A stretch of 38,853 bases of DNA from the NCBI GenBank assembly GCA_043800535.1, contig JAZDMV010000014.1, forward strand, positions 1-38,853. Direction: 5' to 3'. The stretch is from a bacterium (GTDB lineage Bacteria; Patescibacteriota; Minisyncoccia; Portnoybacterales; GWB1-42-6). Shown here one piece after another: positions 779-24,599 of the stretch. Position numbers and translations under genes: made by a program. How positions within the stretch are numbered: position 1 is the first letter of the stretch; the number at the start of each line of letters is the position of its first letter. The notes beneath the pieces are model-generated. The model had not been told where the DNA came from, searched no databases, and saw only the letters and a program-made list of their open reading frames with translations.

Positions 779-1992
779 GTTTCTTTTTCGTTTCTCTTTT
801 TTATCTCCATTGAACCTTTTTCAAGAGTTTTTTCGCTTAAAACAATTCTTATCGGAATGCCGATAAGGTCAGCTTCGGCGAATTTTTGGCCGGGCGAGAC
901 TTCTTCTCTGTCGTCGTATAAAATTTCAACGCCGTCTTTGGTCAAAGCCGCTTCTAAATTATCCGCGACTTTTTTGATCTCGTTGTTAACTGTTTCCTGT
1001 TTACTGCTAACTGTGATTAGATGCGCGCTAAACGGGGCAATTTCTTTTGGCCAAATAATTCCTTGTTCATCGTGAGAAATTTCAACCACGGTACCCATCA
1101 CTCGGCCCGGGCCGATGCCATAGCAGCCCATAATGACAAGCTGCTCTTTGCCATCTTTGTCGCGGAATTTTAATTCAAAAGGTTCAGAATATTTCGTGCC
1201 GAGCTTAAAAATATTGCCGACCTCAATCGCCTTTTCTTCCTTAAAATCGCTTGAGCCGCATTCAGGGCAGGCAGGTGTTTGGTCTTTTATATCCGCGTTA
1301 ACGGCCAGGTTGCATTTTTGACAGACAAAAATTGTGTCTTCGCCGGCGGGCGAAATCGTCTGAAATTCGTGGGAGTATTTTGAAAATGTGCCGCCCGAAG
1401 CCAGAGTCAAAAAAGTTTCTTTGCCCAGGCCTGTTCTCTCAAAGATCTTAAAATAAGCGGTTTTGACTTTATCGTAATATTCGTCCAGGTCTTTTTGGTC
1501 GGCGTGAAAAGAATAGAGGTCTTTCATTAAAAATTCGCGGCCGCGCAGGAGGCCGGATCTGGCGCGGGGCTCGTCGCGGAATTTATCCTGGATCTGGAAA
1601 ACGGCAAAAGGCAGGTCTTTGTATGAAAAAATATGGCTTTTGGCCAGCGGCACGACGATTTCTTCGTGCGTTGGGGCAAGCGCGTAATCCTTGCCTTCTT
1701 TGCCTTTTAATTTAAAAAGCACGTCAAGCGCTTCCCAGCGGCCACTGGCGGCCCAGTTTTCTTTTGGGTTGAGCGCGGGCATTAAAATTTCCTGCCCGCC
1801 AAGCGCGGCCATTTCTTCGCGGATGATATTTTCTATTTTACGCAAAACTTTCAAGCCGAGAGGCAGGAAAGAATAAACGCCGGCTGTCAGTTTGTCCACA
1901 AAACCGGCGCGGGCCAGCAATTTGGCGTTGGCGCTTATTTCGTCGCGTGGCGCTTCCTTAAGAGTTTTGGTAAAAAGGAAAGACTGTCGCAT
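706..1992 (-). CDS. proS: Proline--tRNA ligase (short, archaeal/eukaryote-like type)
   Basis: 428-aa ORF. MRQSFLFTKTLKEAP..ISANAKLLARAGF and the class II motifs (FRDE.RARSGLLRGREF, GCYGIG) are typical of ProRS. Confidence 0.93.
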   Translation of the reverse strand: MRQSFLFTKTLKEAPRDEISANAKLLARAGFVDKLTAGVYSFLPLGLKVLRKIENIIREEMAALGGQEILMPALNPKENWAASGRWEALDVLFKLKGKEGKDYALAPTHEEIVVPLAKSHIFSYKDLPFAVFQIQDKFRDEPRARSGLLRGREFLMKDLYSFHADQKDLDEYYDKVKTAYFKIFERTGLGKETFLTLASGGTFSKYSHEFQTISPAGEDTIFVCQKCNLAVNADIKDQTPACPECGSSDFKEEKAIEVGNIFKLGTKYSEPFELKFRDKDGKEQLVIMGCYGIGPGRVMGTVVEISHDEQGIIWPKEIAPFSAHLITVSSKQETVNNEIKKVADNLEAALTKDGVEILYDDREEVSPGQKFAEADLIGIPIRIVLSEKTLEKGSMEIKKRNEKETQLVKLSDLKNLTALISSPASDSK

Positions 1993-15874: not shown

Positions 15875-16030
15875 CTATTTTATTCGCGTAACGTGCACCA
15901 CCGCGGCCGTCGTTGCTACAATACCAAGGCCGATGGCCCATTTAATTGTAAAAAGACTTCCTAACGTTAAGAAAAAGTACAGACCAAACATGACCGGATA
16001 AATAAATCTGCCTGATCTCTCGATTCTCAT
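15875..16030 (-). CDS. Small hydrophobic protein (51 aa, below the ORF-track cutoff)
   Basis: SD ggaggtg lies 7 nt upstream of the ATG at 16030. The product MRIERSGRFIYPVMFGLYFFLTLGSLFTIKWAIGLGIVATTAAVVHVTRIK has two predicted TM segments. It lies 40 nt downstream of the CcdA-like gene. Confidence 0.5.
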   Translation of the reverse strand: MRIERSGRFIYPVMFGLYFFLTLGSLFTIKWAIGLGIVATTAAVVHVTRIK

Positions 16031-22465: not shown

Positions 22466-22589
22466 AAGTTCAAATGTCAAAGCGCAAATGTCAGGTTCTC
22501 GACGCGTCCCGCACTGTGCGGGGCTTGCTCGAACAATAATTTTATTTTATTCTTCGAGCGAGCGAAGCGAGTCGAGAAGTTAGAACAAT
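22466..22589. repeat. Intergenic composite repeat (ttcaaa-type low complexity, ccc-gc hairpin, ctcgaacaataat/ttattcttcgagcg module)
   Basis: It has the hairpin cccgcactgtgcgggg. The ctcgaacaataat and ttattcttcgagcg..gtcgagaag blocks recur at 31537-31640. Confidence 0.7.
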
Positions 22590-22604
22590 TTGGATTTGTT
22601 TCTT

Positions 22605-23147
22605 ATGGATTATCAAATTTTTCAATTAATAAATAGCTTGGCCGGGCACTACCAATGGCTGGATGATGTCGGCATTTTTTTGGCGAGTTATTCGCAGTAT
22701 TTTATCGGTGCGGGGATTATTATTTGGATGCTGGCCAAAAAAGACAAAGCAGTTTTCTGGGAAAATTTTAAGATCACGGCGTATTTTTTTGTCACCGCCA
22801 TTGTTTCGCGTTTTGTGTTCGGCGAGGCGATAAAAAGAATTATCGCGCGGCCAAGGCCTTTTGAACTCCATCAGGTGACGCAATTGATCCCTGAAGATCT
22901 GCGCATGTCTTTTCCTTCTGGTCACATGTCTTTTTTCTTTGCTTTTTCCGCTGCGGTTTATTTATACAACAAAAAGGCGGGTATTATTTGTTTTGTGGCG
23001 AGTTTGTTGATGGGTCTTGCGCGAATATACACGGGCGTGCATTATCCGGCCGATATCTTGGGCGGAATGGTTTTGGGGATTTTGGTGGGATGGGGGATGC
23101 ATAGGGTCGGTAAAAAATTTATGCAAGCTCCGCAACAAAATTTATAA
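22605..23147 (+). CDS. PAP2-family phosphatase (undecaprenyl-diphosphatase-like)
   Basis: KR...RPRP, PSGH and RIYTGVHYPADILGG motifs. An alternative TTG start lies at 22590. Confidence 0.82.
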   Translation: MDYQIFQLINSLAGHYQWLDDVGIFLASYSQYFIGAGIIIWMLAKKDKAVFWENFKITAYFFVTAIVSRFVFGEAIKRIIARPRPFELHQVTQLIPEDLRMSFPSGHMSFFFAFSAAVYLYNKKAGIICFVASLLMGLARIYTGVHYPADILGGMVLGILVGWGMHRVGKKFMQAPQQNL

Positions 23148-23158
23148 GATTAAGTTTT

Positions 23159-23196
23159 AAAACAAAATCCCGCAATCATTGCGGGATTTTGTTTTT
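23159..23196. terminator. Bidirectional terminator (PAP2 gene / tRNA-Leu)
   Basis: aaaacaaaatcccgc-aatcatt-gcgggattttgttttt. Confidence 0.75.
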
Positions 23197-23199
23197 ATG

Positions 23200-23283
23200 T
23201 GCCGCGGGAGAGAGTTGAACTCTCATGAGCGTGAGCTCATACGATTTTGAGTCGTACGTGTCTGCCAGTTCCACCACCGCGGC
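23200..23283 (-). tRNA. tRNA-Leu(CAA), class II with long variable arm
   Basis: Hand-folded: acceptor GCCGCGG/CCGCGGC, D arm GTG-GAACTGGCAGA-CAC, anticodon arm TACGA-CTCAAAA-TCGTA, variable arm TGAGC-TCAC-GCTCA, T arm GAGAG-TTCAACT-CTCTC, discriminator A. No CCA is encoded. Confidence 0.85.
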
Positions 23284-23524
23284 ATGATATTTGTAAATTA
23301 TCCAAAAATTTTCTGCCTATGCCACTCTTTAGAAAAACTTCTCTTTTCCTTGCTTCTTTATAATTTTGGAACTCTTCCGAGTGTATTAATGTGAAAGGTT
23401 TATATATTTTAGTGCTCTTATTACATCCTGTATTATGCTGTTTTAGCCGCCGAGACAGTTCGTTGGTTATGCCAATATAGCGGTAATTTTTTTCATTACT
23501 TTTTATTACGTAAAGATATATCAT
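23237..23524 (-). CDS. GIY-YIG nuclease family protein (small UPF0213-like)
   Basis: IYLYVIKS...YRYIGITNELSRRLKQHN..KSTK...PF.LIH.E.F....A..RE.FLKS..GR.FL. The last ~16 codons read into the tRNA-Leu 5' half. Confidence 0.8.
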   Translation of the reverse strand: MIYLYVIKSNEKNYRYIGITNELSRRLKQHNTGCNKSTKIYKPFTLIHSEEFQNYKEARKREVFLKSGIGRKFLDNLQISCRGGGTGRHVRLKIV

Positions 23525-23539
23525 TGAATTTCAGTCTGT

Positions 23540-23648
23540 TCGTACGTGGTCGCCTGAGGCGACTAAATCTGTCAACTCGCCAGAGGCGAGTAAACTTCGC
23601 TGTCCTGCGGCCAGCTTGCCCGCCTCTGGCGGGTTCCACCACCGCGGC
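23540..23648 (-). pseudogene. Displaced copy of the tRNA-Leu 5' half (positions 1-31) with an 84-nt insertion in the D loop
   Basis: GCCGCGGTGGTGGAAC (23633-23648) and CACGTACGA (23540-23548) are identical to the intact tRNA. The D-loop remainder is replaced by three hairpins (cccgccagaggcggg, ctcgcctctggcgag, gtcgcctcaggcgac). Identity stops exactly at the anticodon loop. Confidence 0.75.
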
Positions 23649-23657
23649 TCACTTTTC

Positions 23658-23686
23658 ATCTTATTGGCTGGACGCCTATTTGTCAA
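23658..23686 (-). promoter_or_regulatory. Sigma70-like promoter reading into the displaced tRNA half, the GIY-YIG ORF and tRNA-Leu
   Basis: On the minus strand: TTGACA (23686-23681), 17-nt spacer, TAAGAT (23663-23658). The tRNA-half 5' end lies 9 nt downstream. Confidence 0.55.
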
Positions 23687-23719
23687 TTTGAGAAGATGTT
23701 ATATAATTAAGACAGTAAT

Positions 23720-23826
23720 CGTCATTACGAGTGAAGCGAAGTAATCCCGTGGACAGCGGTAATCAAACGGGATTGCCACGTCGCCCCGCCCCGCACAGTG
23801 CGGGGTGCGGGGCTCCTCGCAATGAC
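23720..23826. repeat. MITE-like palindromic element upstream of parA
   Basis: Terminal inverted gtcattacgag.. / ..ctcgcaatgac, with central hairpin ccccgc-acagt-gcgggg (23789-23805). Confidence 0.65.
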
Positions 23827-23834
23827 ACACAGAT

Positions 23835-24599
23835 GTGGCAAAGATAATCGCGTTCGTCAATCAAAAGGGCGGAGTGGGTAAAACGACTTCGGCCGTTAAT
23901 CTGGCCGCTTATTTGGCGGCGTTCGGAAAATATGTTTTGCTGGTTGATCTGGACCCGCAAGCCAATGCCACAGCCGGCCTTGGTTTTGAGCCGGAGGGAT
24001 TAGATAAAAATTTGTATCACAGCTTAATCGGCCAATCCTCGCCGCAGGAACTTGTGCGCAAAACAAACATCTTTGGCTATGAGATTATTCCTGCTTCGGG
24101 TGATTTGGCAGGCGCGGCGGTTGAGCTTGTGCCTTTAGAAAACCGGGAATTCCGTCTTTGGAACATGCTGCATGCCATTCGCACAAATTATGACTATATT
24201 ATCATTGATTCGCCGCCGAGTTTGGGCCTGCTGACAATTAATGGTCTGGTAGCGGCAGACGAACTGATCATTCCTGTGCAGACAGAATATTATGCGCTTG
24301 AGGGCCTCGGCCAGCTTCTGAAAACGGTTAATTTAATTCAGGAAAATCTTGGCAAGGATTTAAAAATCAAAGGCGCGCTTCTGACAATGTTTGACAAAAG
24401 GAATAAATTGAGCCAGCAGGTGGCCAAAGAAGTTCGTCTGCATTTTCCCGGTTATGTTTTTGAGACGCAGATCCCAAGATGTGTCCGTCTGGGAGAGGCA
24501 CCAAGTTTTGGCAAAACGATTCTCCAGCACGACGCTTCTTCCAAGGGCGGAAAAGCTTATCGCCAGCTGGCGGAAGAAATTTTGAGGATGGAACAATAA
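23835..24599 (+). CDS. parA: ParA/Soj chromosome-partitioning ATPase
   Basis: Deviant Walker A NQKGGVGKTT. GTG start. Confidence 0.9.
   Translation: MAKIIAFVNQKGGVGKTTSAVNLAAYLAAFGKYVLLVDLDPQANATAGLGFEPEGLDKNLYHSLIGQSSPQELVRKTNIFGYEIIPASGDLAGAAVELVPLENREFRLWNMLHAIRTNYDYIIIDSPPSLGLLTINGLVAADELIIPVQTEYYALEGLGQLLKTVNLIQENLGKDLKIKGALLTMFDKRNKLSQQVAKEVRLHFPGYVFETQIPRCVRLGEAPSFGKTILQHDASSKGGKAYRQLAEEILRMEQ

Follow-up and report, generated by a model that had tools for sequence, protein, structure and literature searches.

The 38,853-nucleotide (nt) contig JAZDMV010000014.1 (assembly GCA_043800535.1) of a patescibacterial genome, referred to here as the window, contains on its minus strand a small gene for a GIY-YIG nuclease. 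This gene lies between a defective, hairpin-interrupted 5' part of a transfer RNA (tRNA) gene, tRNA-Leu(CAA), here termed psi, and a complete copy of the same tRNA gene. The best explanation, to which somewhat better than an even chance is given, is that the window holds one occupied site of a homing-type selfish cassette that targets tRNA and transfer-messenger RNA (tmRNA) genes. It would belong to a family of selfish elements, apparently not described before, that settle in tRNA genes while leaving their function intact. The observations behind this explanation are a characteristic architecture that recurs in many genomes, sites in empty, occupied, split and decayed states, an open reading frame (ORF) that moves, and purifying selection acting on this ORF.

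In the window, psi begins 9 nt past the -10 hexamer of a promoter, at 23648, and comprises two collinear exact matches to the intact tRNA gene, nt 1-16 being repeated at 23648..23633 (E=6e-4 within the window) and nt 24-32 at 23548..23540. Three perfect 6-3-6 palindromes of the form NNNGCCnnnGGCNNN are packed within 85 nt between these two matches, and no further units of this form are found in the 38.8-kb window. All the parts that a sequence-only reading of this DNA had listed, including the promoter 9 nt before the half-copy and the complete, foldable tRNA, are present at or within a few bases of the positions it gave, although some of its boundaries have to be redrawn. The half-copy with 16 and 9 identical nt stands, but its D loop is interrupted at tRNA positions 15/16 and 23/24 rather than replaced. 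Moreover, the likeness does not end at the first nucleotide of the anticodon loop, as had been claimed: the 15 nt from the last identical base of psi to the ATG of the ORF still align with the tRNA (GACTGAAATTC versus GACTCAAAATC, 9/11 identical). This stretch corresponds to the loop and 3' stem strand of the anticodon arm, extends psi to about position 41 and abuts the start codon. The overlap of the ORF end with the tRNA was correctly noted and comprises the final 47 nt, but it is atypical, homologous ORFs being 77-80 amino acids (aa) long with their own stop codon 1-12 nt before tRNA +1. Since the window ORF has lost its stop codon, its residues 80-95 are read from the tRNA. The psi of the window is also more decayed than usual, with a duplicated hairpin unit of the B form described below, a scrambled 20-nt piece and a mutated anticodon loop. 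The only tRNA called by ARAGORN in the window is the intact tRNA-Leu(CAA), at 23283..23199.

The nature of this locus becomes apparent from syntenic relatives (L079-L083), which were found through similarity of ParA, itself Portnoybacteria-like. In L080 (ParA 89% identical) the gene order is Sua5, PAP2, tRNA-Leu(CAA), parA, with a spacer of 295 nt versus 688 nt in the window. A promoter TTGACA-17-TAATAT is followed there by the 9-nt leader aaagagtga and tRNA +1, while in the window TTGACA-17-TAAGAT is followed by gaaaagtga and psi +1. Because the promoter and leader of L080 are homologous to those of the window, the window promoter is the native promoter of the tRNA-Leu gene and psi stands exactly at the place of the tRNA, in agreement with the earlier proposal that a unit entered this gene and displaced its 5' half behind the tRNA promoter. 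L082 and L083 likewise have the promoter and then the tRNA, without an ORF, whereas L079 (ParA 92% identical) has the same tRNA as the window (identical over the 79 nt present on the contig) and neither ORF nor psi. The PAP2 / tRNA-Leu / parA locus is, thus, polymorphic for presence and absence, being occupied in the window and unoccupied in L080, L082 and L079.

A split state of the same locus is found in L081 (ParA 87% identical; 1030-1406, reverse strand), where GCCGCGGTGTCGGAACTGGCAGACGATTGCGACTC lies behind the promoter and AAAATCGCATGG...CTCTCCCGCGGCA follows about 170 nt further on. Taken together, both halves form a perfect tRNA-Leu(CAA) split between the anticodon nucleotides 34 and 35. 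The insert of ~170 nt, in which no ORF is left, contains a whole tRNA-Leu(CAA) gene whose acceptor stem, GCCGCTG, is different and of a type also present in L082 and beside the ORF in L001, L027 and L041. This whole replacement tRNA bears out the idea that the unit brings or regenerates a working tRNA. Entry at the anticodon loop, which had also been suggested, applies to L081, whereas the junction in the window lies at about position 41-43. The L081 insert is bounded by imperfect GC-rich inverted repeats, CCGCCCGCCTTACTTCGCCGCC ... GGCGCAAGGCGAAGCGGGCGCGGC.

In six other loci (L041, L060, L042, L049, L018 and L022) a 3' pseudo-part, or a near-whole pseudo-tRNA riddled with hairpins, lies downstream of the intact tRNA and differs from it in sequence type. 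On these comparisons, a foreign origin of the working tRNA is demonstrable in L081, L041 and L060, and the pseudo-parts are best read as leftovers of the former resident tRNA gene. The empty and split loci, together with those having a downstream pseudo-part, therefore define the invariant core of the cassette as the ORF immediately followed by an intact tRNA. The tRNA-Leu(CAA) gene itself is strikingly different between close relatives whose ParA proteins are 87-92% identical and whose flanks are 94% identical, as seen when window 23199-23283 is compared with L080 2349-2433 and with the L081 pseudo-tRNA, and L029 with L031. In the diverged copies the acceptor stem is kept, whereas compensated substitutions have altered the D, anticodon and T stems completely. 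Such change is unusually fast for a tRNA and could reflect repeated replacement or an arms race with the nuclease.

The arrangement recurs in 78 related loci, 25 from reference genomes and 53 from metagenomes. Many belong to lineages of the candidate phyla, namely Parcubacteria groups, Saccharibacteria, Moranbacteria and Levybacteria, and others to metagenome-assembled genomes of Bdellovibrionales, Gammaproteobacteria, Nitrospira, Thermodesulfovibrionales, Bacteroidetes and Ignavibacteria. A same-strand tRNA gene starts -23 to +12 nt from the ORF stop in 56/78 loci, and the adjoining tRNAs include Leu (CAA, TAG, CAG and TAA), Gln (TTG and CTG), Arg (CCT), Met, Gly and Ser. When contig-end cases, decayed ORFs, tandem arrays and mirror forms are counted, about 72 of the 78 loci are linked to a tRNA or tmRNA, and only about four are without such a link. 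A psi copying the 5' part of the adjacent tRNA lies upstream of the ORF nearly always. When the first 30 nt of the tRNA are compared with the 170 nt preceding the ORF, the longest exact match has a median length of 13 nt (5 nt in controls) and reaches at least 9 nt in 33 of 49 distinct loci versus 0 of 85 control regions. The association of other GIY-YIG copies with tRNA genes and the duplication of tRNA parts elsewhere had been named as checks in the sequence-only reading, both came out in favour of its proposal, and recurrence across many phyla supports the accompanying suggestion of a general spreading route for small GIY-YIG genes.

A mirror form, with a complete tRNA or tmRNA, then the ORF, and then a partial 3' copy carrying a hairpin in the T loop, occurs in L011, L012, L019, L075 and L077. 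The tmRNA is the apparent target in L019 (1-760) and L012 (2628-3330), where the complete tmRNA is followed by an ORF that ends, with its last codons and stop, within a palindromic unit of type A, then by a second hairpin and a copy of the tmRNA T loop and 3' end; L019 has three such tmRNA 3' copies in succession.

At the protein level, a profile search retrieved 10,537 cluster representatives (50% identity), of which 1,893 have E<=1e-10. Among the 150 top matches, many are lengthened at the N- or C-terminus by 'extensions' that result from translation of psi, hairpin or tRNA sequence. Database proteins ending in ...GRHARLKIV, for instance, carry the translated anticodon arm of tRNA-Leu(CAA), and those starting with ...DLVASGDR... 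the translated third hairpin and D-stem strand. False N-termini of this kind recur in gene calls (MADLVASGDR..., MPRWRNPPEAGKLADL...), as do the false C-termini ...GRHARLKIV (entries P0002, P0008, P0009, P0012, P0014 and P0140-P0289), and these peptides are a possible search handle for the architecture without DNA context.

The relation between the ORF and its neighbouring tRNA provides further insight into the behaviour of the cassette. Across 39 distinct Leu-type loci, the nucleotide identity of ORFs and that of the adjacent tRNAs are uncorrelated (Spearman 0.01). Genes for different isoacceptors can adjoin ORFs that are 88-89% identical, as with Leu(CAA) in L035 and L041 and Leu(TAG) in L043, and ORFs 81% identical occur at CAA and CAG genes. 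In L044 and L046, psi and tRNA are 99-100% identical and 3.2 kb are 96% identical, whereas the sole extended divergent block in the 650 nt aligned runs from just after hairpin B to the ORF end (~84% identity, synonymous divergence dS ~1.2), with a further differing patch of ~35 nt just downstream of the tRNA. This pattern of divergence is that of a cassette exchange bounded by psi and the tRNA. In turn, L029 and L031 share ORFs that are 99% identical next to tRNA-Leu(CAA) genes whose anticodon stems are entirely different but compensated, and their psi matches the tRNA of L035. Taken together, these sequence comparisons show that the ORF has moved horizontally with respect to the tRNA. The uncorrelated identities and the near-identical ORFs at different isoacceptors rule out that an ORF and its neighbouring tRNA always travel as one unit; joint travel does occur sometimes (L081, L041, L060). 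The clades of the ORF track the type of target RNA: the nearest ORF neighbour has the same type in 56 of 61 cases, and four of the five exceptions concern types seen only once. Truncated or frameshifted ORFs occur in L022, L024, L040 and L078, in addition to the missing ORF of L081, and tandem arrays in L020, L036, L065, L075 and L019. Such decayed ORFs and arrays complete the picture, fitting a cycle of invasion, decay and re-invasion.

The ORF is under purifying selection (ratio of nonsynonymous to synonymous divergence, dN/dS, 0.04-0.2) and, with its catalytic residues retained as well, counts as functional. Such selection is also expected of a host gene in a tRNA operon, namely a repair or housekeeping nuclease for which psi would be a by-product of duplication or slippage and the apparent movement a result of recombination after natural transformation. 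The conserved synteny beside parA in several Parcubacteria and the repair-type character ascribed to the Slx1-like lineage (PMC1564403) speak for this interpretation, which is nonetheless judged distinctly unlikely. It leaves unexplained that the gene is missing at the same locus in the close relatives L079, L080 and L082, that the same ORF clade is found at different isoacceptor genes, that decayed copies and tandem arrays occur, that native tRNAs are split by the insert, and that the ORF block is far more diverged than its flanks.

The palindromic units are a further feature of the cassette. In Leu-type loci, the unit is a 15-nt palindrome (6-bp stem, 3-nt loop) with a 4-nt tail. It occurs as form A, in which the palindrome is followed by YAAR and inserted after tRNA position 9, 13, 15/16 or 18, and as form B, in which TTTA precedes the palindrome and the insertion is nearly always at position 23/24; a third unit, of A form, is present at position 32/33 in some loci. 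Form B is the reverse complement of the A format, loops included (AGA/AAA versus TCT/TTT), and the unit is therefore a DNA-level entity used in both orientations. The stems stay perfectly paired through compensatory variants (GTCGCC/GGCGAC, ATCGCC/GGCGAT, CCAGCC/GGCTGG, CTAGCC/GGCTAG and others), and the insertion points in tRNA copies are confined to loops or stem-loop junctions (D loop, anticodon loop, T loop). The GC-rich palindromes differ in other ORF clades, being CCCCGCtaaGCGGGG at Gln loci and CCTGCCTGCCGGCAGGCAGG at Gly, Met and Arg loci and in L011; the hairpin family tracks the protein clade and not the tRNA. An origin of the hairpin arms as local inverted copies of the tRNA would fit D stems of the GGCGG type, but the same units stand beside GGTGG in the window; this, along with their tracking of the ORF clade, means that the units are inherited and not made locally.

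Close to the ORF and tRNA, within ~220 nt, units show a 25-fold enrichment over the remaining sequence (105 in 56.6 kb versus 17 in 226 kb), and most of the distant ones belong to other pseudo-tRNA remnants. This enrichment and their absence from the rest of the window rule out that the hairpins are general genomic repeats. Local multiplication of units is seen in L004, L005, L033 and L046. In addition, a folD-like gene (L001 3944..4840, minus strand; also in L026 and L027) carries two tandem 15-nt units, CCAGCCTTCGGCTGG and TCCGCCTTGGGCGGA, at L001 4424-4453, 1.1 kb from the ORF. These 30 nt are in frame and add SAQGGPAEGW within the conserved DGF|HP, between the two FolD Pfam domains, so that units can evidently insert elsewhere.

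These properties raise the question of whether the locus is primarily a two-component palindrome system, in which the GIY-YIG protein makes or moves the units in the way a REP-associated tyrosine transposase (RAYT) does with repetitive extragenic palindromic (REP) sequences. Pseudo-tRNAs would then be tolerated landing sites, and adjacency to a tRNA would serve expression only. The enrichment near the ORF in both orientations, the correspondence of unit family with ORF clade instead of tRNA, the in-frame units in folD and the fact that the closest protein folds are structure-specific nucleases would all be accommodated. Nevertheless, such a system alone does not account for the partly duplicated tRNA, for cassette swaps or for the existence of empty as well as occupied sites. 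Moreover, units are rare away from the ORF, all three units of the window lie in psi with no wider dispersal across it, no RAYT was seen in the loci examined, and a unit-moving activity of the protein would have to be postulated. This interpretation is considered unlikely as the whole explanation, and it is compatible with a homing-type cassette instead of exclusive of it.

A different role for psi and its hairpins would be that of a functional cis-acting RNA, a tRNA-like leader controlling the translation or processing of an ORF-tRNA precursor. The ORF and the tRNA could plausibly share a transcript started at the tRNA promoter. In addition, the tRNA might have a transcript of its own, given a 9/12 promoter-like site inside the 3' end of the window ORF (23325..23297), a possible separate tRNA promoter; comparable sites lie just before tRNA +1 in 24% of related loci versus 3.5% of control positions. 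For the precursor 23200-23651, both the minimum free energy fold and the ensemble computed with RNAfold predict that the 3' strands of the tRNA acceptor and anticodon stems pair with psi (P ~0.99 for the acceptor strand with the 5' strand of psi as for the pairing overall). In this purely thermodynamic prediction the true 5' half would be displaced and an intron-like long-range fold formed. A leader function would further agree with the compensated stems and the restriction of insertions to loop positions, which leave tRNA-like helices unbroken, and with an ATG that abuts the psi anticodon stem without a visible Shine-Dalgarno sequence. However, L049 and L042 have no psi upstream of the ORF and carry a pseudo-tRNA downstream of the intact tRNA, mirror forms carry the pseudo-part on the 3' side of the ORF, a single transcript contains the same unit in both orientations, and psi is variably truncated and decayed, the window included. 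A regulatory RNA is, thus, very unlikely, and a stricter version, with psi as a required 5' leader or guide RNA, is weakened by the same L049, L042 and mirror forms. The related idea that hairpins block the competition of psi for the 3' half of the tRNA is unsupported, since RNAfold predicts the same psi pairing when the hairpins are removed in silico.

The encoded protein matches the Pfam GIY-YIG family PF01541 (E=1.7e-16, 60.7 bits versus a cut-off of 22.6), and its catalytic residues Y5, Y16, R26, H30 and E62 are invariant or nearly so in the homologue alignment A1. No NCBIfam model matches the ORF. The AlphaFold2 model has a mean predicted local distance difference test score (pLDDT) of 80, falling below 50 in the tRNA-encoded residues 81-95. 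A profile search of the PDB retrieved 1zg2 (UPF0213 protein BH0048, E=2e-6) and 1ywl (EF2693, E=8e-6), followed by Slx1, and Foldseek ranked 1zg2/BH0048, the plant junction resolvase HIGLE and Slx1 ahead of the catalytic domain of I-TevI. The ORF product is, hence, a minimal stand-alone GIY-YIG domain of the Slx1/UPF0213 type with no auxiliary domain, and its homologues consist of the catalytic domain only. No invariant Asn is found in the C-terminal part of A1, as judged from this sequence alignment and not from a structure-based comparison with N90 of I-TevI; a C-terminal Asn is typical of UvrC and the homing-endonuclease lineage (PMC1564403). A survey from 2006 separated the Slx1-like proteins of bacteria from the lineage of homing endonucleases and regarded them as minimal repair enzymes, inherited for the most part vertically (PMC1564403).

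Under the favoured explanation, a homing-type cassette, the sole cassette gene would encode this minimal Slx1/UPF0213-type nuclease of ~78 aa, which would break the unoccupied cognate tRNA gene somewhere between the D arm and the anticodon arm. The break would be repaired from an occupied allele, with psi and the complete tRNA serving as homology arms between which the ORF is copied in. The recipient would end up with its native promoter, a psi that was formerly its own 5' part, the ORF, and a working tRNA either rebuilt or brought whole. The function of the tRNA would, thus, be preserved by duplicating or replacing part, and sometimes all, of the tRNA instead of by RNA splicing, and the tRNA promoter would then probably drive the ORF, which precedes an essential gene. 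The GC palindromes of 15-19 nt that interrupt psi are parts of the element, with a presumed role in its stabilisation. They cut the direct repeat formed by psi and the tRNA into stretches of at most 16 nt, and any deletion by recombination across them would bring a hairpin into the sole working tRNA. According to other readings, the hairpins may protect psi from the nuclease or may be the nuclease's own substrates.

Several points weigh against this explanation. The activity of the nuclease and its target are predictions in every member of the family, and the protein, with homologues of 77-80 aa, offers no DNA-binding module for a long target. Its nearest relatives are structure-specific nucleases (Slx1, HIGLE), not classical homing endonucleases, and the Slx1-like proteins of bacteria have been treated as repair enzymes passed on vertically (PMC1564403). 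The main difficulty is that every tRNA-internal sequence is also present in the intact tRNA next to the ORF, so that the escape of the occupied allele from cutting is not accounted for. The sole hint in this respect, which would also be one hint at the nuclease target, is the D-loop tail at the hairpin-B site, which reads (C/T)AGA in 27/29 psi copies and 27/39 intact tRNAs and is, in turn, missing in 2/29 and 12/39, respectively. In addition, psi matches the resident tRNA in some loci and a foreign one in others, and more than one insertion route or later replacement must therefore be invoked. In the window, psi and the tRNA are of the same sequence type and, therefore, a foreign origin of this copy is not demonstrable. 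Finally, if RNase P cuts at tRNA +1, the lost stop codon of the window ORF would leave a stop-less message.

A stronger form of the same idea, which appears rather unlikely, is that the nuclease and the units form a gene-replacement addiction device. In such a device, the sole working copy of an essential single-copy tRNA would be carried or rebuilt by the element, the units would be placed to kill the displaced copy, and excision by recombination would be lethal because a hairpin would pass into the working tRNA. If this were true, units would be put actively at single-stranded loop positions, the displaced copy could never be revived, and a minimal Slx1-like structure-specific nuclease would be the engine of a new kind of mobile element. 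The fast compensatory divergence of tRNA-Leu stems among candidate-phyla relatives could then be explained as an arms race.

Comparison with known elements helps to delimit the cassette. Group I introns are found in the anticodon loop of tRNA-Leu in cyanobacteria and plastids, and the insertion point of L081 between nucleotides 34 and 35 is the classical site of this intron. Both systems share the target family, this insertion point and a selfish insertion tolerated in an essential tRNA; however, the cassette has no ribozyme, and continuity is provided at the DNA level through a second, intact tRNA and not by splicing. Integrase-borne islands and prophages, in turn, integrate into tRNA and tmRNA genes and restore the target with a carried copy. 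The cassette resembles them in target duplication, in the sublocations used (anticodon loop and T loop, both classical integrase targets) and in the use of tmRNA (L012, L019). It differs from them in lacking a tyrosine or serine recombinase, in its size of 0.3-0.4 kb and, in its main form, in duplicating the 5' part and sitting between promoter and tRNA. That the locus is a remnant of one of these classical elements, either a degenerate tRNA-Leu group I intron with its homing endonuclease or the att duplication of an integrase island, is suggested by the shared insertion points, yet the probability of such an origin is close to nil and the idea is largely refuted already. Rfam detects no group I/II intron or other family in window 22500-24500, even at E<=10, and no intron family in 14 related loci at the gathering threshold, which also disposes of the ordinary intron weighed as an alternative in the sequence-only reading. 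The ORF fills nearly the whole insert, an intact tRNA is always present and therefore no splicing is needed, there is no integrase in the neighbourhood, and the main form duplicates the 5' and not the 3' part.

REP/RAYT systems and the Rickettsia palindromic elements consist of short GC-rich palindromes, the RAYT being an HUH transposase. The cassette units are like them in multiplying locally, in both orientations, and in inserting within RNA genes and in frame into folD (L001), while they are only 15-19 nt long, almost confined to the vicinity of the ORF and partnered with a GIY-YIG nuclease instead of an HUH transposase. The Seg proteins of T-even phages are larger and carry DNA-binding domains. 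Their genes are not known to involve partial tRNA duplication or hairpin units and have phage co-infection as their setting, whereas the cassette resides in cellular chromosomes and belongs to the Slx1/UPF0213 lineage. Nevertheless, these free-standing GIY-YIG endonucleases, such as SegB in the tRNA cluster of T4, are alike in placing a nuclease gene among tRNA genes without an intron (PMC2330249). SegB-type spread proceeds through a double-strand break in the allele lacking the gene, with co-conversion of the flanks (PMC2330249).

The closest parallel in principle is provided by the mobile ORFs (mORFs) of fungal mitochondria that carry a duplicated gene terminus, known from atp6 of Allomyces and from atp6, atp9, cox2 and nad3 of Glomus (PMC3630166). 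There, too, an endonuclease ORF resides in an essential gene, the insert brings a copy of the part that it cuts off, and the native part is left as a pseudo-fragment (PMC3630166); in some cases of both systems a foreign origin of the working part is demonstrable, for the cassette in L081, L041 and L060. The mORFs differ in having organelle protein-coding targets, a duplicated C-terminus, full-size LAGLIDADG or GIY-YIG enzymes and no palindromic units, whereas the cassette has bacterial tRNA and tmRNA targets, usually a duplicated 5' part, a 78-aa Slx1-like domain and a dead copy interrupted by hairpins. As for the protein itself, UPF0213 and the bacterial Slx1-like proteins (BH0048, 1zg2; EF2693, 1ywl) share its fold, size and lack of an auxiliary domain and are its best matches in sequence and structure. 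That family has been treated as vertically inherited housekeeping or repair enzymes (PMC1564403), while the cassette clade exhibits presence/absence polymorphism, a target-linked architecture and horizontal movement.

That an endonuclease ORF can preserve the function of its target by means of a duplicated part of the gene is, thus, a principle already known. What appears to be new is the combination of bacterial tRNA and tmRNA targets, a minimal Slx1-like enzyme, duplication of the 5' part behind the native promoter and dedicated palindromic units. Targeted searches of full-text literature, with subscription-only literature outside their scope, returned no account of small GIY-YIG cassettes that are linked to tRNA genes and have hairpin-interrupted pseudo-tRNA parts. 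GIY-YIG proteins of the small, stand-alone kind occur in very large numbers and are mostly annotated just as 'GIY-YIG nuclease family protein'. If the proposed behaviour holds for one large clade of them, a biological role would be available for many unexplained small ORFs in candidate-phyla and other genomes, and homing-type mobility would extend to the Slx1-like lineage, hitherto thought to be housekeeping. It would also add a third way of living inside an essential RNA gene, beyond splicing and the att duplication of integrases. There are practical consequences for annotation, since gene callers translate psi, hairpins and tRNAs as false extensions and tRNA finders skip the hairpin-riddled copies. 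Moreover, tRNA-Leu genes near cassettes may be foreign, by which phylogeny and binning could be misled. The hairpin units are, in addition, a clean candidate substrate for a minimal structure-specific nuclease.

The coordinates of the window locus are collected in Table 1. Its neighbour genes encode Sua5, PAP2, ParA, ParB and RelA/SpoT, with no integrase or recombinase among them, as had been read from the sequence, and the two-sided terminator behind the tRNA faces the convergent PAP2 gene.

Table 1. Parts of the occupied tRNA-Leu(CAA) locus in the window, all read on the minus strand.
Feature	Position	Strand	Support or remark
Promoter-like site of sigma-70 type, TTGACA-17-TAAGAT	23686..23658	-	10/12 match
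psi, pseudo 5' part of tRNA-Leu(CAA), tRNA positions 1 to ~41	23648..23525	-	16-nt and 9-nt exact matches, then 9/11
Palindromic unit A, CCCGCCAGAGGCGGG + CAAG	23633..23615	-	Inserted after tRNA position 15/16 (D loop)
Decayed D-loop piece and 20-nt unpaired, scrambled segment (23614-23595), then unit B'	23614..23576	-	
Duplicated unit B', TTTA + CTCGCCTCTGGCGAG	23594-23576	-	Extra unit specific to the window
D-loop piece TTGACAGA	23575-23568	-	
Unit B, TTTA + GTCGCCTCAGGCGAC	23567-23549	-	D-loop/D-stem junction, position 23/24
GIY-YIG ORF, 95 aa; core, residues 1-79	23524..23237	-	Pfam PF01541
Internal promoter-like site GTGGCA-17-GATAAT, ORF 3' end, 13 nt before tRNA +1	23325..23297	-	9/12 match
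Intact tRNA-Leu(CAA)	23283..23199	-	ARAGORN and Rfam tRNA model, 53.7 bits
Intrinsic terminator hairpin AAAATCCCGCAA / TTGCGGGATTTT + T run, 12-bp stem	23195..23159	-	Read directly

Sub-threshold matches to Rfam leader families (Thr_leader, 31.8 bits versus a gathering score of 55) align only to the terminator hairpin. A second 12-nt match to the tRNA 5' end, at 15907..15896 at the end of a coding region, was discarded as a chance match. A scan of viral contigs gave no relative and, thus, no phage link, and weak matches in Rhizobium and Listeria phages (34-40% identity) do not adjoin a tRNA. A link to defence systems was likewise rejected, with only weak PADLOC matches (E ~2e-3).

Between the tRNA promoter and parA, the window contains a single copy of a nested inverted-repeat element of ~105 nt (23721-23826), with outer arms GTCATTGCGAG / CTCGTAATGAC, inner hairpins GGCAATCCCGT / ACGGGATT and a CCCCGC palindrome rich in GC. 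L080 lacks this element, L079 has a related one (CATT...AATGAC) between promoter and tRNA, and the window copy looks like an insertion of the miniature inverted-repeat transposable element type. Among the related loci, L048 and L050 (L050 2364-2906) have an ORF of 180 aa in the interval that separates the intact tRNA from a pseudo-tRNA further downstream. Its product has a hydrophobic stretch at the N-terminus, a zinc-ribbon-like CxxCxGxG motif at the C-terminus and a weak match to the DnaJ central domain, and the ORF may be cargo of a larger form of the element. In L068 (384-425) a tRNA-Arg has an internal deletion that joins the D arm to the T arm, the near-identical L067 being intact, and in L058 (2241-2383) hairpin units separate the ORF from a tRNA-like gene whose anticodon loop is aberrant.

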